Part shown: piece by piece, positions 988 through 44,526 of the stretch
Layout: each line of letters starts with the position of its first letter
How positions within the stretch are numbered: the first letter of the stretch is position 1
Origin: Escherichia phage vB_EcoP-101117UKE2
Sequence record: MZ234019.1
Length of the DNA stretch: 44,526 bases
Direction: 5' to 3' (one strand)
Notes under the pieces: model-generated
The model's database searches: none
Seen by the model: only the letters and a program-made list of their open reading frames with translations
Told to the model about the DNA's origin: nothing
Position numbers and translations under genes: made by a program

Positions 988-3615
988 ATGCAAGATCTAC
1001 ACGCTATTCAGCTTCAGCTTGAGGAAGAAATGTTTAACGGCGGTATTCGTCGCTTTGAAGCAGACCAACAACGCCAGATTGCATCAGGTAATGAATCCGA
1101 TACGGCATGGAATCGTCGCCTGTTGTCGGAGCTTATCGCACCTATGGCGGAAGGTATTCAGGCTTATAAGGAAGCCTACGAAGGCAAGAAAGGACGCGCA
1201 CCGCGTGCACTGGCCTTCATTAACTGCGTAGAGAACGAAGTGGCAGCATATATCACGATGAAGATCGTAATGGATATGCTTAACACGGATGTAACCTTGC
1301 AAGCCATAGCAATGAATGTAGCTGATCGCATCGAAGATCAAGTACGCTTCAGCAAGCTGGAAGGCCACGCCGCCAAATACTTTGAAAAAGTTAAGAAGTC
1401 ACTCAAGGCAAGTAAGACTAAATCATATCGCCATGCGCACAACGTAGCGGTAGTGGCTGAGAAGTCAGTAGCTGACCGTGACACTGATTTCTCCCGCTGG
1501 GAGGCGTGGCCTAAAGATACCTTACTGCAAATCGGTATGACCTTGCTAGAAATACTGGAGAATAGCGTATTCTTCAATGGTCAACCTGTCTTCCTCCGCA
1601 CCTTGCGCACTAATGGTGGCAAGCATGGTGTTTACTACTTACAGACCAGTGAGCACGTAGGGGAGTGGATTACAGCATTTAAAGAACATGTAGCGCAACT
1701 TAGTCCGGCCTATGCACCTTGCGTCATTCCTCCGCGCCCTTGGGTGTCCCCTTTTAATGGTGGGTTTCATACTGAGAAGGTGGCAAGTCGCATCCGTTTG
1801 GTAAAAGGCAACCGTGAGCACGTCCGTAAGCTGACCAAAAAGCAAATGCCAGCAGTTTATAAGGCTGTTAATGCTTTACAGGCCACTAAGTGGCAAGTTA
1901 ACAAAGAAGTTTTGCAGGTAGTAGAAGACGTTATCCGTCTCGACCTTGGTTATGGTGTACCTTCCTTTAAACCACTCATCGACCGCGAGAACAAGCCGGC
2001 TAACCCAGTGCCGTTAGAATTTCAACACTTGCGAGGCCGCGAACTGAAGGAAATGTTAACGCCGGAACAATGGCAAGCCTTCATCAACTGGAAAGGTGAA
2101 TGCACCAAGCTGTATACCGCTGAGACTAAGCGCGGAAGTAAGTCGGCGGCAACCGTTCGCATGGTAGGACAAGCGCGCAAATACAGCCAGTTTGATGCGA
2201 TTTATTTCGTGTATGCACTGGATAGCCGCTCACGCGTTTATGCGCAATCTAGCACACTCTCACCGCAATCAAACGACCTAGGCAAGGCGTTACTGCGTTT
2301 TACCGAAGGGCAGCCGCTAAATAGCTCTGAGGCGCTTAAATGGTTTTTGGTGAACGGGGCGAATAACTGGGGTTGGGATAAGAAGACTTTCGACGTGCGC
2401 ACCGCTAACGTACTGGACGGCGAGTTTCAAGATATGTGCCGCGACATTGCAGCGGATCCTCTGACCTTTACTCAATGGGTAAATGCCGATTCACCTTATG
2501 GATTCCTTGCATGGTGCTTTGAGTATGCTCGTTATTTGGATGCACTGGATGAAGGAACACAAGATCAGTTTGTGACGCATTTACCTGTTCATCAAGATGG
2601 TAGCTGTTCTGGCATCCAGCACTACAGTGCTATGCTACGCGACGAAGTGGGTGCGAAGGCGGTAAACCTTAAACCATCCGACTCGCCTCAAGATATTTAT
2701 GGAGCGGTTGCGCAGGTTGTTATCCAGAAGAACTACGCCTACATGAATGCAGATGATACAGAAACTTTCACATCTGGAAGCGTAACACTTACAGGTGCAG
2801 AACTGCGTAGCATGGCTAGTGCATGGGATATGATAGGTATCACTCGCGGCTTAACCAAAAAGCCGGTAATGACCTTGCCTTACGGATCCACACGCTTAAC
2901 CTGCCGTGAGTCAGTGATTGATTATATCGTTGATTTGGAAGAAAAAGAGGCACAAAGGGCTATTGCAGAAGGGCGGACGGCTAATCCGGTGCACCCTTTT
3001 GACAATGACCGGAAAGACTATTTAACACCGGGTGCAGCTTACAACTATATGACGGCGTTAATTTGGCCTTCTATCTCTGAGGTTGTTAAAGCCCCTATAG
3101 TGGCAATGAAAATGATTCGCCAGCTTGCACGTTTCGCAGCTAAAAGGGATGAAGGATTAGAATACACCTTGCCAACTGGCTTCATCCTGCAACAAAAGAT
3201 AATGGCTACCGATATGCTTCGTGTATCCACTTGCTTGATGGGTGAAATCAAGATGAGTCTACAAATTGAAACGGATGTAGTGGATGAAACGGCAATGATG
3301 GGCGCTGCCGCTCCTAACTTTGTTCACGGTCACGATGCTAGTCACCTTATATTAACGGTATGTGACCTAGTGGATAAAGGTATTACCTCCATTGCAGTTA
3401 TCCATGACTCTTTCGGTACTCATGCAGGCCGCACCGCAGACCTGCGGGATAGCTTAAGGGCAGAAATGGTGAAGATGTATCAAGGCCGTAACGCTTTACA
3501 ACAATTGCTTGATGAGCATGAAGAGCGTTGGCTAGTAGATACTGGCATCCAAGTGCCAGAGCAAGGGGAGTTTAACCTTGAAGAGATATTAGTTTCTGAC
3601 TATTGCTTCGCATAA
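988..3615 (+). CDS. single-subunit DNA-dependent RNA polymerase, SP6 type (875 aa)
   Basis: Near-full-length similarity to recalled SP6 RNAP sequence ([32 protein letters not shown]..., [22 protein letters not shown]); AGGAG RBS. Confidence 0.97.
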
Positions 3616-35435: not shown

Positions 35436-35629
35436 TGATAAACTCCGAACTGGTAGATAATGGTGTGAAGCTGGCGCCACCTGCATTAGTCTCAGGTGGG
35501 TACTTCCTCGGTATCAGTTGGGACAATTGGGTACTGATAGCAACATTCATTTATACAGTGTTGCAGATTGGCGATTGGTTCTATACTAAATATACAATAT
35601 GGAGGAATAAGCATGAGCGTGCACAATAA
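35435..35629 (+). CDS. class II holin (T7 gp17.5-like, 64 aa)
   Basis: LGISWDNWVLIATFIYTVLQIG matches T7 gp17.5 FGLSLNEWFYVAAIAYTVVQIG; same position between fiber and terminase. Confidence 0.8.
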   Translation: MINSELVDNGVKLAPPALVSGGYFLGISWDNWVLIATFIYTVLQIGDWFYTKYTIWRNKHERAQ

Positions 35630-35912
35630 ACATGCAGCCACAGAGGATGAAGTAGGCATCCTTCATGGCGCTATTACGAAGATGTTTAATAAGAAAGCAC
35701 AGGCTATACTGGACACTATAGAAGAAGACCCTGATTCTGCTATGCACTTAGTGTCAGGTAAGGATATTGGAGCCATGTGTAAGTGGGTTTTAGATAATGG
35801 CATTACTGCAACCCCTGCTGCACAGCAGGAAGAATCTAAGTTGTCTAAGCGTCTCAAGGCTATCCGAGAGGCGTCCAGTGGTAAGATCATTCAGTTTACT
35901 AAGGAGGATTAA
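35613..35912 (+). CDS. terminase small subunit (putative)
   Basis: Synteny with T7 gene 18; ATG 35613 with GGAGG RBS (track start 35568 overlaps holin). Confidence 0.6.
   Translation: MSVHNKHAATEDEVGILHGAITKMFNKKAQAILDTIEEDPDSAMHLVSGKDIGAMCKWVLDNGITATPAAQQEESKLSKRLKAIREASSGKIIQFTKED
35704..35726 (+). promoter_or_regulatory. promoter-like site CTATACTGGACACTATAGAAGAA inside small terminase gene
   Basis: 15 of 17 upstream positions plus initiating region match consensus. Confidence 0.35.
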
Positions 35913-37807
35913 TGGCTAAGGCAAGAGAATCACAAGCGGAGGCTCTTGCCAGATGGGAGATGCTACACGAGTTACAGCAGACCTTCCCTTATACGGCAGA
36001 AGGTTTGCTTCTCTTTGCTGATACAGTTATTCATAATTTAATTGCAGGTAGTCCTCATCTGATTCGTATGCAGGCAGACATCTTGAAGTTCCTATTCTAT
36101 GGGCACAAGTATCGCCTCATCGAAGCGCCCCGTGGTATCGCTAAAACTACGCTGGCAGCAATCTATACGGTGTTCCGTATCATTCATGATCCTCATAAGC
36201 GTATCATGGTTGTATCCCAAAACGCCAAGCGAGCAGAGGAAATTGCAGGTTGGGTGGTCAAAATCTTCCGAGGATTGGACTTCCTAGAGTTTATGCTGCC
36301 AGACATCTACGCTGGCGACCGTGCATCCGTTAAGGCATTCGAGATTCACTATACACTGCGTGGAAGCGACAAGTCCCCTTCTGTATCCTGCTACTCTATT
36401 GAAGCAGGTATGCAGGGTGCTCGTGCAGACATCATTCTAGCAGATGACGTTGAATCTATGCAGAATGCGCGTACCGCAGCAGGCCGTGCATTGCTTGAGG
36501 AATTGACCAAGGAGTTTGAATCTATCAACCAGTTTGGTGATATAATCTACCTTGGTACACCTCAGAACGTCAACTCAATCTATAATAACCTTCCGGCTCG
36601 TGGTTATTCTGTTCGCATCTGGACAGCTCGATACCCTTCTGTAGAGCAGGAGCAATGCTATGGTGGTTTCCTTGCACCTATGATTGTGCAAGATATGAAG
36701 GATAACCCAGCATTGCGAACAGGTTATGGTCTGGATGGCAACAGCGGCGCCCCTTGTGCACCTGAAATGTACGATGATGATGTCCTGATTGAGAAGGAAA
36801 TTTCACAGGGTGCTGCTAAGTTCCAGCTTCAGTTCATGCTTAACACTCGCATGATGGATGCTGACAGATACCCATTACGCCTAAACAATCTAATCTTCAC
36901 CTCATTTGGTACAGAGGAAGTCCCTGTGATGCCTACGTGGAGTAATGACTCCATTAACATCATTGGGGATGCACCTAAGTATGGCAACAAGCCTACAGAT
37001 TTCATGTATCGACCTGTGGCACGTCCATACGAATGGGGTGCTGTTACACGCAAGATTATGTATATTGACCCCGCTGGTGGCGGTAAGAACGGAGATGAGA
37101 CTGGTGTAGCCATCGTATTCCTGCACGGCACATTCATTTATGTGTATCAGTGCTTTGGTGTACCGGGCGGATACCGAGAATCTTCCCTGAATCGCATTGT
37201 GCAGGTCGCAAAGCAGGCAGGGGTTAAAGAGGTATTCATAGAGAAAAACTTTGGTCATGGCGCGTTTGAGGCGGTAATTAAGCCATACTTTGAACGAGAG
37301 TGGCCTGTGACACTTGAAGAGGATTACGCAACTGGTCAAAAAGAACTCCGCATCATTGAGACACTAGAGCCATTGATGACCGCGCATAGGCTCATCTTCA
37401 ATGCGGAAATGGTTAAGTCAGATTTCTCTTCAGTACAGAACTACCCGCTTGAACTGCGGATGTCTTATAGTCTGTTCCATCAAATGTCGAACATCACTAT
37501 TGAGAAGAACAGCCTCAGGCACGATGACCGCTTAGACGCTCTGTATGGCGCTGTGCGTCAATTAACTTCTCAGATAGACTATGACGAGGTTACTCGAATT
37601 AATCGCCTCAGAGCGCAGGAGATGCGCGAGTATATACAGGCGATGAACACACCTAAACTTCGTCGGGCTATGCTGTACGGAGATTATGGTGATGAGCGAA
37701 GAACAACCAACACATCACTAGCGATGCAGCAGAGGATTTACGGGCAGAATTGGAGGAACCGCTCTGGGTATAGAAATACACTTTCCTCAAGAATTTCAAG
37801 GATTTAG
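35912..37807 (+). CDS. terminase large subunit (631 aa)
   Basis: ATPase and nuclease domains by pattern, size and synteny with T7 gp19. Confidence 0.92.
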   Translation: MAKARESQAEALARWEMLHELQQTFPYTAEGLLLFADTVIHNLIAGSPHLIRMQADILKFLFYGHKYRLIEAPRGIAKTTLAAIYTVFRIIHDPHKRIMVVSQNAKRAEEIAGWVVKIFRGLDFLEFMLPDIYAGDRASVKAFEIHYTLRGSDKSPSVSCYSIEAGMQGARADIILADDVESMQNARTAAGRALLEELTKEFESINQFGDIIYLGTPQNVNSIYNNLPARGYSVRIWTARYPSVEQEQCYGGFLAPMIVQDMKDNPALRTGYGLDGNSGAPCAPEMYDDDVLIEKEISQGAAKFQLQFMLNTRMMDADRYPLRLNNLIFTSFGTEEVPVMPTWSNDSINIIGDAPKYGNKPTDFMYRPVARPYEWGAVTRKIMYIDPAGGGKNGDETGVAIVFLHGTFIYVYQCFGVPGGYRESSLNRIVQVAKQAGVKEVFIEKNFGHGAFEAVIKPYFEREWPVTLEEDYATGQKELRIIETLEPLMTAHRLIFNAEMVKSDFSSVQNYPLELRMSYSLFHQMSNITIEKNSLRHDDRLDALYGAVRQLTSQIDYDEVTRINRLRAQEMREYIQAMNTPKLRRAMLYGDYGDERRTTNTSLAMQQRIYGQNWRNRSGYRNTLSSRISRI

Positions 37808-38553: not shown

Positions 38554-39243
38554 ATGCTGGGAGTAACAGGACAACGCAATAAGAATGTAGCCACCAAAGT
38601 AGTGGCTGATTTAGCTACTGCTGCTACTGTCGAGGGATTACGAGACACACATAGCTCTATTAACCGTGCTGACCTTTCTGGTAAACAAGAAGGTTCCGCT
38701 GTTATTGTTAAGAAAGAAGATGGGAATTATTCTATCTTTGTAGCAACAGGAAGCAAGCCGACTGATGTGTGGAAAGAGTTGTCTCCAACAATACCAGAGC
38801 AAGAGATGCCTGCTGAATATATTGATATGATTGATGTTCAAATTCATCAAGATTCTGCAAGCAACTTACGTATAGACTCTTCTCGCACTAGTTTAATACA
38901 AACACCAATGTGGGATACTGAAGGTGAGTTGTTATTCCGTAATACACTAAGTGCAACATGTTCTTGTACTATTCTTGTTGATGGTGCGTCTGGTGTTCGT
39001 CAGGATTTTACTTTTAAGATTAATGGACTTTTAGAGCAGGAAGAGCAGTATTATGATATTGACACACTTATGTGCTCTATTCACTCTGCAACAACAACTA
39101 ATGGCCTTACCTTGTGTATGCCAGATGCTAAAAGTGCAAAGACTAATAAAGTGGTAGTTAAGATCGACACTATGCAGTCATTAGCTATGAGCTTTGATCT
39201 TAACTTCCTTGTAGAATGGACGTCACCAACGAGGTTACTATAA
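38554..39243 (+). CDS. hypothetical protein, tandem paralog 3 of 3 with extra C-terminal domain (229 aa)
   Basis: AGGAG RBS; shared motif SGKQEGSAVIV...IFVATGSKPTDVW. Confidence 0.65.
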   Translation: MLGVTGQRNKNVATKVVADLATAATVEGLRDTHSSINRADLSGKQEGSAVIVKKEDGNYSIFVATGSKPTDVWKELSPTIPEQEMPAEYIDMIDVQIHQDSASNLRIDSSRTSLIQTPMWDTEGELLFRNTLSATCSCTILVDGASGVRQDFTFKINGLLEQEEQYYDIDTLMCSIHSATTTNGLTLCMPDAKSAKTNKVVVKIDTMQSLAMSFDLNFLVEWTSPTRLL

Positions 39244-39845: not shown

Positions 39846-40059
39846 GTTTCTAGAAGTGCTGGCAGGTCTTATTGGCCTGCTTGTCTCTGCTAAGAAGAAA
39901 CAAGAAGAGAAGGAGGCACAAAGTGAAGCGAATCATGTTAGCGATGACCCTGCTGGTTGGTTCGCTGATCACTTCCGGGTGTCAGCAGGCGCTACCAGAG
40001 AAGAAGGGTGTGAAGCCGCTGAAGCCGACGCTGACGGCAGTTTACGAAGTGGACGATAA
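39838..40059 (+). CDS. i-spanin-like protein (putative)
   Basis: GTG start coupled to upstream stop; N-terminal TM segment FLEVLAGLIGLLVSA then charged region; contains o-spanin candidate in another frame. Confidence 0.35.
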   Translation: MNKFLEVLAGLIGLLVSAKKKQEEKEAQSEANHVSDDPAGWFADHFRVSAGATREEGCEAAEADADGSLRSGR

Positions 40060-40132
40060 GGTCTGCTTCAGTAAGCCTGACGCTACACAATTAGGTTTGT
40101 ATATTCTTTCGCTAGAACGCGGGTATAATTAA
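39923..40132 (+). CDS. o-spanin-like outer-membrane lipoprotein (putative)
   Basis: GTG 39923 with AGGAGG RBS; signal peptide KRIMLAMTLLVGSLITSGC with lipobox-like TSGC, Pro-rich mature region. Confidence 0.5.
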   Translation: MKRIMLAMTLLVGSLITSGCQQALPEKKGVKPLKPTLTAVYEVDDKVCFSKPDATQLGLYILSLERGYN

Positions 40133-40161
40133 TACATATCTTTATGTATCAATGTCCTACG

Positions 40162-40184
40162 ATTTACTGGACACTATAGAAGGA
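40162..40184 (+). promoter_or_regulatory. phage RNAP promoter ATTTACTGGACACTATAGAAGGA upstream of tailspike
   Basis: Consensus match. Confidence 0.85.
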
Positions 40185-40261
40185 TAGATAGTGCCGTTCA
40201 TTTGAGCGGCCTATTACTAGCCAATCTTCATAGGGAGGGTTGGGAAGTAATAGGAGAATTT

Positions 40262-41785
40262 ATGGCTAAACTAACGAGAGTCACTGACTGGCTTGTTAAG
40301 GTGAAGTCTAGACTCACTGGTGCAGTAGAGCGACTGCTTGAAGATAAGTTAAATGACACGGTTAGTGTTAAGGACTTCGGTGCTAAGGGTGACGGTGTGA
40401 CAGACGACACACAAGCATTTGCTGCCGCCTCAGCCGCATCGCCTCAAGGTGTTTATGTGCCTGACGGAACATATTTATTACCAGAAGATATTAATGGCAG
40501 GTTCTATGGTTCTGGTAAACGCATCAAGGCTGTAGGTGATGGTGGTATTCCTTTTACCAATGTAGCTCAGTCACATAGTAACCTAATATTAGGATATGAT
40601 GCTGCAAAGGATTACACGGACGAAGGGAAAGGCAACCAATTAGTATTACTTGGCCCAAGCTCCGGTCGTAACCTTACCACTGGTACTAACTCCATTGTGG
40701 TAGGTGTTGGTGGCCTATCGGGTGATACATTAGAAGATGCACTAACAGATAAATCACCTTTCACTGGTACAGAGATTATTAGCATTGGTATCAATGCTCT
40801 TAAGAAAACTACCACTGGCAACAACATGATTGGTATTGGTCGTGATGCCTTGAACGAGTGTAAAGATGGAAGATTTAACGTAGCTGTAGGTATGTCTGCT
40901 TTGCAGCAGCTACACTCTGGTGAGGCTAACGTAGCAATAGGGCGTTCAGCCGGTATGCGTACTGGCATCTTCACTAACGAAGAGGGTGTACGATTAGGCT
41001 ATACAAAATGTAGCGGTAATACCTTAATAGGTAACGCGGCTGGTCGTGAATTGAAGTCAGGTAATCATAACACCGCCGTAGGCAATGGTGCTATGCGAGG
41101 TGTCAGTTCTGATATTAATCCATATACTGGCACTCTAGAGGGTAATTTTAATACAGCTATTGGTGTTGATACATTAAACTCCTTAGCATCTGGTGAGTTG
41201 AACACCATGATTGGCGCAAGGGCTGGACGTAAATTACCTAGTGGCTCTGGTAACATCTTCATAGGTGCGGATGCAGGTGCAGGTATTAACGTTGAAAAGT
41301 CTAACACTCTCATTATTAACAACCACACTGGCTTACCTTTCGTAGAAGGTATTATGGGTGGTGCTCAGAGTGGGAATAACTACTTACGTGTTGATGGCAG
41401 TGTAGCACCTCAGATTGATAACACAAGAACTTGTGGTCAGTCTAGCCGTAGATGGCAGACTGTCTTTGCTACCAATGGTGTTATCCAGACATCGGATGGA
41501 CGATGCAAGGATGTCTACGATATTGCCAAGAAGGAGTACATGGCTGGTCTAGAGTTAGCCTCTAGTATGATTAAGTTCAAATGGACAGATACTGAAGAAG
41601 ATAAGTATCACTTCGGTTGTCTGGCACAAGAGGTCATGCTGATTATGGAGAAACATGGGTTAAACCCTCTGGATTATTCCCTCGTTACCTATGATGCTGA
41701 AGCAGATATGTATGGTGTTAACTATGCAGAATTGTCTTGCTTCTGTATCGCAGCAATGTCCAATCATGTACTAGGCAGTGCGTAA
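40262..41785 (+). CDS. tailspike with beta-helix depolymerase-like domain and C-terminal chaperone-like domain
   Basis: VKDFGAKGDGVTDDTQAF motif; repeated N-x-A-x-G units; C-terminal SDGRCKD...YHFGCLAQEV...EKHGL; ATG 40262 with AGGAG RBS. Confidence 0.85.
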   Translation: MAKLTRVTDWLVKVKSRLTGAVERLLEDKLNDTVSVKDFGAKGDGVTDDTQAFAAASAASPQGVYVPDGTYLLPEDINGRFYGSGKRIKAVGDGGIPFTNVAQSHSNLILGYDAAKDYTDEGKGNQLVLLGPSSGRNLTTGTNSIVVGVGGLSGDTLEDALTDKSPFTGTEIISIGINALKKTTTGNNMIGIGRDALNECKDGRFNVAVGMSALQQLHSGEANVAIGRSAGMRTGIFTNEEGVRLGYTKCSGNTLIGNAAGRELKSGNHNTAVGNGAMRGVSSDINPYTGTLEGNFNTAIGVDTLNSLASGELNTMIGARAGRKLPSGSGNIFIGADAGAGINVEKSNTLIINNHTGLPFVEGIMGGAQSGNNYLRVDGSVAPQIDNTRTCGQSSRRWQTVFATNGVIQTSDGRCKDVYDIAKKEYMAGLELASSMIKFKWTDTEEDKYHFGCLAQEVMLIMEKHGLNPLDYSLVTYDAEADMYGVNYAELSCFCIAAMSNHVLGSA

Positions 41786-41799
41786 GCACTGCTTTTCTC
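41773..41799 (+). terminator. intrinsic terminator spanning tailspike stop codon
   Basis: Stem GCAGTGC/GCACTGC, GTAA loop, then TTTTCTC. Confidence 0.6.
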
Positions 41800-41865
41800 G
41801 CAACTTCCCTTGAAGCAATCTAGCGATACCTTCAAGGGAATAGCTCAAGAAAGCAAGGAGGTTTG

Positions 41866-42015
41866 ATGCCGTTAATCAAATCGGTTAAGCAAAGTGCTGT
41901 ACGCCAGAACACAGAAGAACTTATTCAATCAGGACGTGACCCTAAGCAGGCCTATGCCATTGCCAAGGATGTACAGCGTCGTGCCATGAAGAAACCTTCT
42001 GCATCTTCTGCGTAA
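41866..42015 (+). CDS. small basic hypothetical protein (49 aa), last gene before genome end
   Basis: ATG with AAGGAGG RBS. Confidence 0.35.
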   Translation: MPLIKSVKQSAVRQNTEELIQSGRDPKQAYAIAKDVQRRAMKKPSASSA

Positions 42016-42127
42016 GCAGGTTAATATCTTAGTGTACACAAGGGCAGACTTAGGTTTGCTCTTAGTGTATTCACAAGGATGATCACAAAGTAACCAAGTC
42101 AAAATTTTGATGTAGGCGTGTGTCAGC

Positions 42128-42300
42128 TCTCTCGCCCTCGCCCTCGCCGGGTTGTCCCCATAGGGTGGCCTGAGGGAATCCGTCTTCGACGGGCAGGGCT
42201 GATGTACTCCTTGTACTAGCTTAGTAGTACACAAGGGCTGGCCTTTTGTTTTGCCGTGTACTAGCAAGGTGGAACGCTGGAGAGCGCCTAGGACGGCCTA
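42128..42300. other. probable physical genome terminus and terminal-repeat region
   Basis: TCTCTCGCCCTCGCCCTCGCCGGGTTGTCCCCATAGGGTGG resembles the recalled T7 left-end sequence; lies between last late gene and early promoters. Confidence 0.5.
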
Positions 42301-42386
42301 GGGATGGGCTTAGTGGTGGACAAGGTGATTGCCTTAGTGAAGCCGCTTAGTGCATTCCTGAGGCCATTCAGGGCGTTTATGAGGTA

Positions 42387-42416
42387 TTGACAGGGTGGGC
42401 GGGCGTGGGCTATCTG
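42387..42416 (+). promoter_or_regulatory. candidate host sigma70 early promoter
   Basis: -35 TTGACA at 42387; weak -10 TATCTG after 18-bp GC-rich spacer. Confidence 0.3.
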
Positions 42417-42790
42417 TTCGTTTCGCTAACGCTCCACTCACAAGCCTGACGTGTACCTTAGTTATTACCTTAGGTTATTCCTTGATGGATAGCTTAGGTT
42501 AACCTGAGTGGATTACCTTAGTTAAAGCCTTAGTGCTTAGCTTAGTATCAGCTTAGTAGTGTACCTTAGTCAGACTTAGTGTCTTCTCTTAGTGATTGCA
42601 CATGCAAGCATGTAAGATGCCATTAGGTCGCGGTCGGTAGACCGCTAAGAAGAAATAATAGTAATAAGATGCAGTAGGAGGAACACCAGAAACCTGGCCA
42701 ACCTAGCCTATCCTAGCTCTGTATCTATTGCTTTTCCTTAGTCTAACACGTTAGACAACCTATCTTATTCTTAGTGATGGTAACTTAGTG

Positions 42791-42820
42791 TTGACAAGAT
42801 AATCTTAGTGTAATACTATG
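42791..42820 (+). promoter_or_regulatory. candidate host sigma70 early promoter
   Basis: -35 TTGACA at 42791, 17-bp spacer, -10 TACTAT. Confidence 0.5.
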
Positions 42821-42962
42821 CATCACGTAGGCGGTGCTGAGGCACCTAGTAGCCAGCTAGTAAGGCATACGAAGAGACTAGTGCCTACATTGTTCTTTAA
42901 CAATTTGCTTAGTGTAACCTATGTATGCCGTGGTTAATTACTTATTGAATGAGGGATTAACT

Positions 42963-43142
42963 ATGACATTAAACAACCGTGAACTGTCCGTTCTCTTCAC
43001 TATGTTGTGCTACATGATTCGTAACAACGAATTACTTACAGACGATGAGTTAGCCTTGTATCACCGCTTTCTTAACGAAGGTTGGACTGATACAGTTAAT
43101 CAATACCGTAACATGATAGATGAGTTGAGGGAGGGTAAATAA
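42963..43142 (+). CDS. early hypothetical protein (59 aa)
   Basis: ATG 42963 with GAGGG RBS (track start 42921 lacks RBS); stop overlaps next start (TAATG). Confidence 0.55.
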   Translation: MTLNNRELSVLFTMLCYMIRNNELLTDDELALYHRFLNEGWTDTVNQYRNMIDELREGK

Positions 43143-43366
43143 TGTATCAACATGAGGTATTCTTTGAATCAGCTAGCGAAGCTATTCGCTTCCGTGATGA
43201 TATGATGCAAGCTGGTGTAGGCGTTGATGTGTATCACTATTTGATAGATTACGACACTGAATATCACCGAGTTACCTTAGTATCTGAGTATGACAACCAA
43301 GTCATTACTGAGTATCTAGGTAGTGAAGATTATGATTACGATGAAGTAATCACGACAAATCTCTAA
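43142..43366 (+). CDS. early, strongly acidic protein (74 aa); candidate DNA-mimic or anti-defence protein
   Basis: GAGGG RBS; Asp/Glu/Tyr-rich composition; leading-end position next to ocr. Confidence 0.6.
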   Translation: MYQHEVFFESASEAIRFRDDMMQAGVGVDVYHYLIDYDTEYHRVTLVSEYDNQVITEYLGSEDYDYDEVITTNL

Positions 43367-43374
43367 ATTAACTA

Positions 43375-43404
43375 TTGACAGCCACGGCATACAAGGTTAC
43401 ATTA
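43375..43404 (+). promoter_or_regulatory. candidate host sigma70 promoter
   Basis: -35 TTGACA at 43375, 17-bp spacer, -10 TACATT. Confidence 0.4.
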
Positions 43405-43480
43405 AGCACATAGCCGATAGGCAACGCTCTTTAACAATCTGGTTTGTGTCTTGATAGGCTAACTAACTAAGGTAATTATT

Positions 43481-43591
43481 ATGAAAGGTTTAATTTGTGT
43501 AGAACGTATGGTCAATGGTAAACTTGAAATATTACCACTGGAAAACCAATCTAGCTTCAAAGAGTGGTATGGCTGTTTCTCACTGATTTAA
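43481..43591 (+). CDS. small hypothetical protein (36 aa)
   Basis: ATG preceded by AACTAACTAAGG; weak support. Confidence 0.25.
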   Translation: MKGLICVERMVNGKLEILPLENQSSFKEWYGCFSLI

Positions 43592-43742
43592 GGTAAAGGC
43601 TGGCACTAGTCAGCCTATCAAGGCGCAAACCAAGCTCTTTAACAATTTGGATGGTAGCTTCTTAGTCTGGATAGGTTAAACCTAGGAGATTCTCTTGAGT
43701 CTCCTATAATGTAACCTAACTAACTAAATGAGGATTAATAAC

Positions 43743-44096
43743 ATGGCTATGTCTAATATGACTTACTCTCAGGTTTACAACACCGCTCATGCTGCATTAG
43801 TTGAACGTATCTGGAATGATGCTATTGATTGTATCGATAACGCACATGATGCAATCCATGAGGTAGCGGACAGTGCTGTACCAATCTATTATGCTGACAT
43901 CTTCTCAGTGATGGCGAGTGAAGGTATTGATCACTTCTTCGAAGACTCCGGCCTGATGCCAGATACTAAGGATGTAACGGTCGTACTACAAGCCCGTATC
44001 TATGAACAACTCACCATTGATTTATGGGAACGTGTTCAAGATATGATTGTTGCGTACACCACTTACGCTGATTATTCAGAAGAAGAGGAAGAATAA
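43743..44096 (+). CDS. ocr: Ocr-like anti-restriction DNA-mimic protein (117 aa)
   Basis: MAMSNMTY start and [52 protein letters not shown] match recalled T7 gp0.3; acidic C-terminus; GAGG RBS. Confidence 0.9.
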
Positions 44097-44098
44097 GG

Positions 44099-44212
44099 AT
44101 GGAAAAGCAATATAACTTTATCTTTTCAGACGGTGTGACCCTGAAGTGTTCCCTGCGTTTCGCGCAGATTCGCGAGGAAGTGCTAGGAACTACATACAAA
44201 CTATTTAGCTGA
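44099..44212 (+). CDS. small hypothetical protein (37 aa)
   Basis: ATG just after ocr stop; overlaps downstream promoter; weak. Confidence 0.25.
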   Translation: MEKQYNFIFSDGVTLKCSLRFAQIREEVLGTTYKLFS

Positions 44213-44225
44213 CACTATAAGAGAG
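44203..44225 (+). promoter_or_regulatory. phage RNAP promoter variant ATTTAGCTGACACTATAAGAGAG
   Basis: SP6-consensus-like upstream half; altered initiation region TATAAGAG. Confidence 0.55.
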
Positions 44226-44285
44226 GGTTTAACAGGGCGCTCTTGCGAGAGTGCCCGATTAAATCAACTTAACGAGATATTAAAT

Positions 44286-44462
44286 ATGAAATACATACTG
44301 ATTGCTATGTTTTCTGGCTTCATTGGCTATGCTGGTGCTTCTTATGACAACTACAGAAGTAAGCAATTGGCTGCTGAAAAGTGGGATAAAACCTATTTTG
44401 CTTGTATGAAACAAGGTAATTTGATGCAAGATTGCATACTTAAAGCGCGCAGCGAAGAGTGA
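44286..44462 (+). CDS. small protein with signal-peptide-like N-terminus (58 aa)
   Basis: MKYILIAMFSGFIGYAGA hydrophobic N-terminus, two Cys; weak RBS. Confidence 0.4.
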   Translation: MKYILIAMFSGFIGYAGASYDNYRSKQLAAEKWDKTYFACMKQGNLMQDCILKARSEE

Positions 44463-44526
44463 TGAGCCTATAGCCTACTTAAGTGGGCTATGTGAACACC
44501 ATTCATTAACTCAAAAGGTGACTATT

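Follow-up and report, generated by a model that had tools for sequence, protein, structure and literature searches.

Where does the genome of Escherichia phage vB_EcoP-101117UKE2 begin and end? The deposited record (MZ234019.1), whose whole length of 44,526 nucleotides is analysed here and referred to as the window, has no terminal repeat and its first nucleotide lies mid-genome. After the last late gene comes a stretch, 42016-42920, that a preliminary description had called non-coding for about 900 bp. This holds: no + strand ORF of at least 50 aa was found between 42016 and 42920, and curated relatives annotate no gene there. We consider it very probable, on comparative grounds, that 42016-42920 represents the concatemer-junction form of the ends of an SP6/K1-5-like genome (Vectrevirus, T7 supergroup). 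The junction reading is supported by homology and by the presence of T7-type packaging genes rather than by reads. Coordinates refer to the + strand of the window throughout.

The window at 40000-44526 is the same sequence as GenBank MZ234020.1 (Escherichia phage vB_EcoP-101118B1, Vectrevirus; 44,526 bp), which a query of 41800-43000 matched at 100%. MZ234020.1 was assembled with SPAdes from Illumina reads and its source paper contains no terminus analysis. Assignment to Vectrevirus follows the record's own taxonomy and an identity of 86-93% over the region to many Vectrevirus records. The end and the start of the record adjoin in R4596 (nt 2006-2807) and in P3a (nt 1975-2774), as one piece each and with 99.3-99.4% identity. 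Because end and start are joined in relatives whose records open at the terminal repeat, the record is circularly permuted, which bears out the earlier suggestion of a permuted or junction-containing assembly. By this alignment, window nt 1 corresponds to approximately genome nt 2398, and the break in the circle lies about 2.4 kb rightward of the true left end.

Eight independently deposited relatives give starts within 42128-42132 of the window: SP6 at 42128, K1E, R4596 and EEc2/4 at 42130, P3a, mutPK1A2 and phD2B at 42131, and K1-5 at 42132. The right end of the repeat, ...GGGCTA, corresponds to 42412 in all end-to-end relatives except phD2B (...GGGCGGTA). Exact terminal repeats, identical as prefix and suffix, measure 174-288 bp in SP6, K1-5, K1E, R4596 and mutPK1A2, and a repeat is annotated in the records of P3a (repeat_region, 283 bp) and phD2B. 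From these record starts and exact repeats, a direct terminal repeat is predicted to run from 42128-42132 to 42412. Its predicted length is 281-285 bp (about 283), and it would be present at both ends of a linear virion DNA of about 44.81 kb. None of the 14-mers of 42128-42412 recurs elsewhere in the window, so only one copy is present and the repeat has been collapsed, as the preliminary description had proposed. Its placement of the true left end near 42128 is likewise supported by homology, 42128 being the SP6 register and 42130/42131 the positions suggested by the nearest relatives.

The uncertainty of the left end amounts to 2-4 nt inside a TCTCTC run, and the register varies by up to 4 nt among relatives. 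In the experimentally mapped UAB_Phi78, the annotated repeat lies ~15 nt further left at both boundaries; the direct terminal repeat of that phage was obtained from Bal31 digestion and run-off sequencing, with SP6 cited alongside (SP6-group phages). For R4596, the paper gives a repeat of 428 bp and the record carries 285 bp.

From 42128 the left end reads TCTCTCGCC (TCTCTCGCCCTCGCCCTCGCC), with CCCCATAGGG at 42156-42165. The T7 genome starts TCTCACAG...CCCCCATAGGGGG, with a palindrome-like element at T7 nt 25-37. The resemblance noted at 42128 to the T7 terminal sequence proved real, TCTCTCGCC and CCCCATAGGG being placed as at the T7 left end. The predicted repeat also contains (CTCGCC)x3 at 42131-42148, detected by TRF, and a segment of 47-49 nt that is absent from K1-5; its GC content is 0.52-0.57, compared with about 0.42 in the flanks. 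To its left, 42016-42127 would be unique sequence lying just before the right-hand terminal repeat of virion DNA, and the same order is found in K1-5, SP6, K1E, R4596 and mutPK1A2. Within this sequence, a block conserved in the subfamily, CACAAAGTAACCAAGTCAAAATTTTGATGTAGGCGTGTGTCAGC (42084-42127), runs up to the cut site of the left end and includes the palindrome CAAAATTTTG (42100-42109); Klebsiella, Proteus, Lelliottia and Pectobacterium phages carry the same block. No structure stood out when the left end, the repeat insertion, the pause site and the early leader were folded as single-strand DNA (z-scores of +0.2 to -1.3).

The right edge of the predicted repeat is straddled by ATCTGTT (42412-42418), which for T7-type RNA polymerases is the conserved core of the class II pause/termination signal. 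This is the sole + strand copy in the 44.5 kb genome; five copies are on the - strand. The motif occupies the repeat edge (marked by a slash) in SP6, K1-5, K1E, R4596 and mutPK1A2 (...GGGCTA/TCTGTT) and in T7 and T3 (...GTCCCT/ATCTGTT). It is also found in Klebsiella and Proteus phages, and POP72 has ATCTGTC. The literature sets a class II motif at the T7 concatemer junction and, in view of its position across the repeat edge, we read ATCTGTT at 42412-42418 as a putative concatemer-junction pause site. A literature search found no source on whether SP6-type polymerases recognise ATCTGTT or class II signals.

A TTGACA hexamer is present inside the predicted repeat, at 42387-42392, and every genome examined shares it unchanged apart from phD2B, where it is missing. 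Its pairing with TATCTG as a sigma-70 promoter was rejected as unconvincing: TATCTG does not have the T of the last -10 position, the two hexamers stand 18 nt apart (20 nt in R4596), and the promoter scan did not report the pair. An extended -10 has been reported at the T7 junction; on our reading of the T7 sequence, it leans on T7-specific bases downstream of ATCTGTT that are not conserved here.

The packaging and transcription genes are of T7 type. The small terminase subunit (35568-35912) matched PF11123 DNA_Packaging_2 (T7 gp18-type) with E = 4e-16, and the large subunit (35912-37807) matched the T7-terminase RNaseH-like domain PF22530 with E = 9e-36. A single-subunit RNA polymerase is encoded at 988-3615 (PF00940 and PF14700), and the genome carries 13 SP6-type promoters, ATTTACTGGACACTATAGAAG, all on the + strand, those nearest to the junction being at 40172 and 44213. 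By analogy with T7, replication would generate head-to-tail concatemers with one copy of the repeat at each junction. Phage RNA polymerase travelling rightward from the late promoters, the nearest at 40172, would pause on meeting ATCTGTT at the repeat's right edge, and the paused complex, together with the T7-type terminase, would start maturation. Cutting would produce the left end at ...GTGTCAGC(TC)/TCTCGCC and the right end at ...GGGCTA/TCTGTT, and DNA synthesis would duplicate the repeat. On infection, the same left end would enter first and offer its TTGACA promoters to host RNA polymerase, and the boxA-like leaders described below suggest Nus-dependent antitermination.

The junction is further marked by a short repeat, CTTAGT, which occurs 19 times on the + strand of 42016-42920 and not at all on its - strand. 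The rest-of-genome rate predicts 0.44 copies (Poisson P about 8e-25), and 5000 first-order Markov simulations of the region itself gave an expectation of 0.79 and a maximum of 5. In 12 of the 19 copies the next base is G. About 19 copies of CTTAGT(G) had been placed after 42128; the count was exact, but the copies at 42028 and 42061 lie upstream of the end. These two, 33 nt apart and each within a copy of CTTAGTGTA, are left of the repeat, and four more (42220, 42309, 42333 and 42346) are inside it. To the right of the repeat, a phased array of 12 (C)CTTAGT(G) units, spaced by 10-13 bp with a mean of about 12, extends over 42454-42593. Eight units are exact (42457, 42517, 42529, 42541, 42552, 42565, 42575 and 42588) and four have one mismatch (CTTAGG twice, CTGAGT and CTTGAT); TRF returned a period of 12 and 9.8 copies. 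The period of 12 bp differs from the helical repeat, a point that we counted against the explanation preferred below. The position, period and motif of the array are the same in 13 other Molineuxvirinae genomes, and the whole layout, with two copies before the repeat, four inside it and the 12-bp-phased array after it, is kept over several genera of the subfamily.

The remaining five copies (42737, 42770, 42784, 42804 and 42908), conserved in the alignment, lie around and in the first strong host-type promoter. This is a predicted sigma-70-type promoter, TTGACA-17-TACTAT (42791-42819), which matches the consensus at 10 of 12 positions, is the counterpart of T7 A1, and has a -35 hexamer and flanks that are invariant in seven genomes. 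These five copies fit a role in transcription or entry as well as one in packaging. A second predicted promoter, TTGACA-17-TACATT (43375-43403), also matches at 10 of 12 positions; the consensus scan thus confirmed that TTGACA-type host promoters follow the repeats. The leader of the first early transcript contains TGTTCTTTAACAA (42891-42903), an rrn-type boxA-like element identical at 12 of 13 positions to TGCTCTTTAACAA, which we take to be the rrn boxA consensus. Allowing at most one mismatch, the element has only three matches, every one of them on the + strand within the early region, the others being at 43425-43437 and 43633-43645; the alignment shows no variation in TGTTCTTTAACAA. For the first early gene, the probable start is not 42921 but ATG 42963, which is preceded by a GAGGGA Shine-Dalgarno sequence and is homologous to the start of K1-5 gene 1. 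Full-text literature searches (CCTAAAG; boxA with SP6) returned irrelevant papers only. The original SP6 and K1-5 genome papers, those of Dobbins in 2004 and Scholl in 2004, may well already cover some of these features (the CTTAGT repeats, the pause motif or boxA).

What might the CTTAGT copies do? We tentatively prefer, by analogy, a reading in which the array and the paired left copies would provide reiterated contacts that load or position an oligomeric small terminase, and we hold it at somewhat less than even confidence. We know of no evidence, here or for T7, of terminase binding to short repeats. A possible but distinctly less favoured explanation is that the copies are not packaging signals but sites for a host or phage early DNA-binding protein, or features of the start of infection such as stepwise entry or early promoter firing. 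The array is on the first-entering end, between the repeat and the first strong promoter, and five copies are found at TTGACA-17-TACTAT, where the one at 42784 abuts the -35 and the one at 42804 is in the spacer. In some relatives, this upstream region also carries a perfect TGTGA-N6-TCACA (CRP-like) site, which shows that the region has a regulatory use. However, the opposite end of the genome always has two copies, just to the left of the right repeat, and the repeat itself contains several. This symmetric flanking of the junction, seen in T7 and T3 as well, is not readily accounted for by entry or early transcription alone, and no candidate binding protein is known.

Immediately after the array is a highly conserved non-coding block (42595-42760), which hardly varies among SP6, K1E and K1-5 and is better conserved than the repeat's interior. 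Hairpin 1 (42599-42612), which shows compensatory changes at three pairs, is followed by TAAGATGCCATTAGGT, hairpin 2 (GCGGTC-GGTA-GACCGC, 42630-42645), an A-rich spacer, a second TAAGATGCAGTAGGAGGAACACC and the near-palindrome GTCTAACACGTTAGAC (42741-42756). Proteus and Pectobacterium phages have GCTTGC..GCAAGC in place of the hairpin 2 stem. A 16-mer scan of viral contigs hit 65 loci, only 12 of which were true homologues. The RNA fold z-score of the block against shuffles was -3.0 on the + strand and -0.9 on the - strand. No sigma-70 promoter or terminator that would define a transcript over the block was found on either strand, and an Rfam scan of 41700-44526 at E <= 1 returned only a chance-level SNORD15 (17 bits, E = 0.88).

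It is unlikely, in our judgement, that the array and the hairpin block (42454-42760) together form a transcribed structured non-coding RNA or a single-strand DNA origin or priming element. Compensatory changes keep hairpins 1 and 2, the + strand folds better than its shuffles and the - strand does not, and the invariant TTGACA at 42387 offers a possible start. The secondary replication origins of T7, which flank its junction, also count for such an element. Yet the possible start has no acceptable -10 (TATCTG at 18 nt, with a spacing of 20 nt in R4596), the block belongs to no Rfam family and no terminator follows it. The alignment contains few independent lineages, so that covariation is thin, and the palindromes of the hairpins could equally be protein-binding sites.

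The array (42454-42593) and the two-hairpin block (42595-42760) may conceivably constitute one functional module of the Molineuxvirinae, a doubtful proposal that takes either of two forms. As a loading site, the module could accommodate a ring-shaped small terminase through about 8-12 reiterated contacts over about 100-140 bp; as a structured RNA or single-strand DNA element, it could serve junction processing or replication. No experimental characterisation of the module was found in the literature. If demonstrated, a role in either form would also explain what the short-repeat arrays of T7 are for.

Four small CDS (051-054, 33-39 aa) are annotated in the record at 42118-42219, 42246-42350, 42395-42502 and 42818-42937. 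They are Prokka calls that are open in this genome, and the last is intact in the three closest relatives aligned. It is nonetheless highly improbable that they are real genes: stops or frameshifts break them in K1-5, K1E, mutPK1A2, SP6 and partly P3a, curated relatives annotate nothing in the homologous stretch, and they share sequence with the repeat edges, the pause motif and the boxA leader.

Headful packaging of a truly circularly permuted genome without a fixed end, with 42016-42920 merely a regulatory intergenic region, would agree with a deposited record that lacks a terminal repeat and begins mid-genome, but is scarcely credible given a terminase of T7 and not of P22/T4 type, the many relatives with exact short terminal repeats bounded at homologous nucleotides, and the discrete Bal31-sensitive ends obtained from related phages.

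The concatemer-junction reading has consequences for curation. MZ234020.1 ought to open at ~42130 and to carry the ~283-bp repeat twice, which would bring its length to about 44.81 kb, and CDS 051-054 should be dropped. The same changes are probably needed for MZ234032.1, in which the region is identical, and for many further permuted records of Vectrevirus. Such corrections are relevant to comparative genomics and to phage-therapy dossiers, this phage having been studied as a candidate against uropathogenic E. coli.

A junction within the assembly is an ordinary finding that is already known for this phage family, and the genome ends themselves offer nothing new biologically. For T7-like phages (przondoviruses assembled with SPAdes/Shovill), short-read assemblers have been reported to delete one terminal repeat and leave the other copy mid-contig. 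The collapsed mid-contig repeat of the window is alike, with no difference of substance from that artefact.

The ends are homologous to those of the Molineuxvirinae K1-5 (AY370674) and SP6 (NC_004831), with 93% identity to K1-5 over the left end. The three genomes have in common the (TC)TCTCGCC..CCCCATAGGG left end, the GGGCTA/TCTGTT edge, the CTTAGT layout, the hairpin block, the early promoter and boxA. The repeat of the window is longer (281-285 bp, compared with 234 bp in K1-5 and 174 bp in SP6) because of the 47-49-nt segment and other interior indels. Two features are missing from the window: gene 49 of K1-5, located before the right repeat, and the CRP-like site of SP6 and K1E. The K1-5 and SP6 records run end to end, whereas the two ends of the window are merged in one permuted record.

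Likeness to T7 and T3, whose terminal repeats are 160 and 231 bp, respectively, is one of architecture, as there is no nucleotide homology beyond short motifs. As in these phages, the left end begins TCTC and carries a C-run-ATAG element (CCCCCATAGGGGG in T7) some 25-35 nt from its start, ATCTGTT marks the right edge of the repeat with host promoters after it, and the terminase and RNA polymerase are of T7 type. The strand-specific short repeats are also distributed alike, with two left of the repeat, about three within it and, directly to its right, ~12 units in a phased array. In T7 the array consists of CTAAAG with a 13-bp period, at the place of the 12-bp CTTAGT array of the window; T3 has CTAAAG/TTAAAG copies at the array position, and both T7 and T3 have two CTAAAG left of the repeat. 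The window repeat ends one nt into ATCTGTT, whereas those of T7 and T3 end just before it. No phage promoter lies beside the window junction, the nearest being 2 kb off (40172 and 44213), whereas T7 has phiOL at 405 and phiOR at 39229. From T7 to the SP6 group, the junction architecture of a cut-site block, the CCCCATAGGG element, a pause motif at the edge and phased repeats on one strand has been rigidly kept.

The record has been opened at an arbitrary point of the phage genome. When its last 400 nt and first 400 nt were joined, they matched one contiguous piece of R4596 (2006-2807) and of P3a (1975-2774), with 99.3-99.4% identity; the records of both these related phages begin at the terminal repeat. 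Exact terminal repeats are present in relatives' records, and no 14-mer of the predicted repeat (42128/32-42412) occurred a second time elsewhere in the window. The contiguity of the joined ends and the single repeat copy indicate that the record is a circular permutation in which two repeat copies have been collapsed to one, as the preliminary description had proposed. On this alignment, the record is opened about 2.4 kb to the right of the true left end. Exactly the same repeat-collapse artefact has been described for short-read assemblies of other T7-like phages.

Two other deposits share this region. Megablast of 41800-43000 gave 100% identity to MZ234020.1 (Escherichia phage vB_EcoP-101118B1), classified as Vectrevirus (Molineuxvirinae, SP6/K1-5 group); the two sequences, both of 44,526 bp, agree at every position of 40000-44526, and no overlap was found between the two ends of MZ234020.1. 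Its source paper reports Illumina MiSeq reads, SPAdes assembly and Prokka annotation, and contains no analysis of termini. Positions 41745-42945 of MZ234032.1 (vB_EcoP-G3A1) were also 100% identical to the end region of the window. 101117UKE2 (MZ234019) is listed at 44,526 bp, like 101118B1. In all likelihood the three are one phage or nearly identical ones, their deposits sharing the permutation and the collapsed repeat.

The ends were mapped from relatives deposited as linear molecules beginning at the physical left end. The SP6 record starts at the counterpart of 42128 (exact terminal repeat of 174 bp), those of K1E, R4596, EEc2 and EEc4 at 42130 (exact repeats of 288 bp in K1E and 285 bp in R4596), those of P3a, mutPK1A2 and phD2B at 42131 (283 bp annotated, 286 bp exact and 262 bp annotated respectively) and that of K1-5 at 42132 (234 bp, exact). 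Homology thus bears out the left end that had been placed near 42128. All the differences at this boundary fall inside the run GTGTCAGC-TC-TC-TCGCC. The right end of the repeat is ...GGGCTA in all of these relatives but phD2B (...GGGCGGTA), after which the left arm continues TCTGTTCG, setting the boundary in the window at 42412|42413. Together, these starts and this end predict a repeat of 281-285 bp at 42128/32-42412. Its edges are fixed; variation in the region is greatest in its interior, the repeat length ranging over 174-288 bp in relatives. A segment of 47-49 nt (~42216-42264), present in the window, P3a and R4596 and absent from K1-5, mainly accounts for the greater length of the window repeat relative to that of K1-5. 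This segment holds an inverted repeat, GTACTAGCTTAGTAGTACAC / GTGTACTAGCAAGG. For R4596 the published repeat is 428 bp, as against the exact 285 bp in the record. The ends of UAB_Phi78, an SP6-group phage, were mapped by Bal31 digestion and run-off sequencing, in a paper that cites the SP6 repeat as established. The current UAB_Phi78 record holds one copy of the direct terminal repeat, annotated at 1-180; compared with SP6 and the others, it starts 15 nt and ends about 11-15 nt further left, a shift that cautions against taking the ends as exact to the nucleotide.

Both edges carry conserved sequence. At 42128 the window reads TCTCTCGCCCTCGCCCTCGCCGGGTTGTCCCCATAGGGTGG and the T7 genome starts TCTCACAGTGTACGGACCTAAAGTTCCCCCATAGGGGGTACC; the likeness to T7 noted from the sequence is real, consisting of a TCTC start and a CCCCATAGGG element about 25-30 nt further in. 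The 44 nt immediately to the left (42084-42127, CACAAAGTAACCAAGTCAAAATTTTGATGTAGGCGTGTGTCAGC) are kept even in Molineuxvirinae that infect Klebsiella, Proteus, Lelliottia and Pectobacterium. Nothing else in the region is conserved as widely as these 44 nt and the opening 40-50 nt of the repeat, as would be expected for a left-end cutting site. The right edge is marked by ATCTGTT (42412-42418, + strand), the core sequence conserved in the class II signal at which T7 RNA polymerase pauses or terminates. In T7 and T3 this motif directly follows the repeat, whereas in the SP6 group its first base is the last base of the repeat. This is the only copy on the transcribed (+) strand of the whole window, against five on the - strand (16722, 30199, 35033, 38015 and 40744) where each strand would be expected to have about four; this distribution fits selection against class II pause signals within transcription units.

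The short repeats were counted next. CTTAGT occurred 61 times on both strands of the window, against 29 expected. Within 42016-42920 the + strand carried exactly 19 copies, in agreement with the earlier estimate of about 19, and the - strand carried none; the rest of the genome predicted 0.44 (Poisson P about 8e-25), and 5000 Markov simulations with the region's own composition gave a mean expectation of 0.79 and a maximum of 5. SP6, K1-5, K1E, R4596 and the window shared a fixed layout. A pair of copies spaced 33 nt apart precedes the right repeat, the repeat itself contains one to four, a dense array starts 45-105 nt past it, and four or five further copies surround the early promoter. Counting one-mismatch variants, the window array comprised 12 units in 42457-42593 at a spacing of 10-13 bp; TRF gave a period of 12, and 13 other Molineuxvirinae genomes share this period. 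The comparison with the short repeats near T7 ends was accurate in detail: T7 has a CTAAAG array with a 13-bp period at the equivalent place, a further two copies ahead of the right repeat and three within it, and T3 has CTAAAG/TTAAAG copies similarly placed.

We know of no established role for such repeats, even in T7. Their presence on both sides of the junction, their strictly single orientation and the retention of position and phase despite the change of motif between T7/T3 and the SP6 lineage favour contact with the small terminase, and we tentatively regard them as reiterated contact sites for the oligomeric protein, with rather less than even confidence. Alternatively, they may act at genome entry or in early transcription; CTTAGT copies abut and sit within the promoter at 42791. 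They might also belong to a structured element that is transcribed or single-stranded.

The array and the promoter are separated by a non-coding block (42595-42760) that is nearly invariant in SP6, K1E and K1-5, more conserved than the repeat interior, and maintained from Vectrevirus to Zindervirus, Ulipvirus, Axomammavirus and Proteus phages. It consists of hairpin 1, an invariant TAAGATGCnnnTAGGT, hairpin 2, an A-rich spacer, a second TAAGATGCAGTAGGAGGAACACC and, last, the near-palindrome GTCTAACACGTTAGAC, with a duplicated motif, TAAGATGC(N2-3)TAGG. The stem of hairpin 1 is kept through compensatory changes (ACATGC/GCATGT, ATAGCT/AGCTAT, ATAGC/GCTAT, ACAAGC/GCTTGT and ATATGC/GCATAT), with double changes at three pairs; hairpin 2 is GCGGTC-GGTA-GACCGC in the window, and phages of Proteus and Pectobacterium have GCTTGC..GCAAGC instead. 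Folded as RNA, the + strand was more stable than shuffled sequences (z = -3.0), whereas the - strand was no better than shuffles. An Rfam search over the block gave no match, and the promoter/terminator scan yielded neither element for it.

Host-type promoters do follow the repeats, with 10/12 matches to the sigma-70 consensus at 42791 and 43375. Three + strand copies of (T/C/A)G(T/C)TCTTTAACAA (42891-42903, 43425-43437 and 43633-43645) occur in early leaders or intergenic regions, unchanged among SP6, K1E and K1-5. Each is 12/13 identical to TGCTCTTTAACAA, which we take to be the E. coli rrn boxA. Their sequence suggests Nus-factor antitermination of early transcripts made by the host polymerase; no paper on boxA in SP6-type phages was found in the accessible literature. 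Four relatives have a perfect CRP-type palindrome, TGTGA-N6-TCACA, 45 nt ahead of the TTGACA in their first early promoter (SP6 531-546, K1E 670-685, mutPK1A2 650-665 and vB_EcoP_C 1522-1537); the segment that holds it is absent from the window, K1-5, R4596 and P3a.

The non-coding character proposed for this stretch of about 900 bp was upheld, there being no + strand ORF of at least 50 aa in 42016-42920. The record annotates four CDS of 33-39 aa as 'hypothetical protein' (051-054; 42118-42219, 42246-42350, 42395-42502 and 42818-42937), which are placed within the repeat, over the pause site and in the leader with boxA. Stops or frameshifts break them in K1-5, K1E, mutPK1A2, SP6 and partly in P3a; they are not conserved as ORFs, and curated relatives have no annotated gene at the homologous stretch. 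CDS 055 (start 42921) probably includes 42 nt too many at its 5' end, its predicted start being ATG 42963, the counterpart of the K1-5 gene 1 start, with a GAGGGA Shine-Dalgarno sequence.

The phage encodes a T7-type large terminase (PF22530, E = 9e-36), a small terminase subunit of the T7 gp18 type (PF11123, E = 4e-16), a T7-family holin and a single-subunit RNA polymerase. SP6-type phage promoters (ATTTACTGGACACTATAGAAG and variants) numbered 13 in 3717-44213, all on the + strand; those nearest the junction are at 40172 upstream and 44213 downstream. T7 has phiOL and phiOR beside its junction, whereas no phage promoter adjoins that of the window. Just past the tailspike gene, a 16-nt inverted repeat, TTCCCTTGAAGCAATC / GATACCTTCAAGGGAA, was seen at 41805-41840, where R4596 has an annotated terminator; it could keep some late transcription from running on to the junction. 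Junction anatomy, conservation and the encoded enzymes are direct observations, and the steps that would join them are drawn from T7. By that analogy, concatemers would carry one repeat per junction, late transcription would run into the junction and pause at ATCTGTT, and terminase would cleave at both conserved boundaries, with synthesis duplicating the repeat.

The genome ends themselves were already known and add nothing new, the collapsed repeat being a documented assembly artefact; the primary SP6 and K1-5 genome papers may have described the pause motif at the edge of the repeat, as well as boxA and the hairpin block. What novelty remains concerns the roles of the CTTAGT array and of the hairpin block. 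The region is a close homologue of the published ends of K1-5 and SP6 and, having every defining feature that was tested at the level of sequence, is of the T7-supergroup genome-end/concatemer-junction class.
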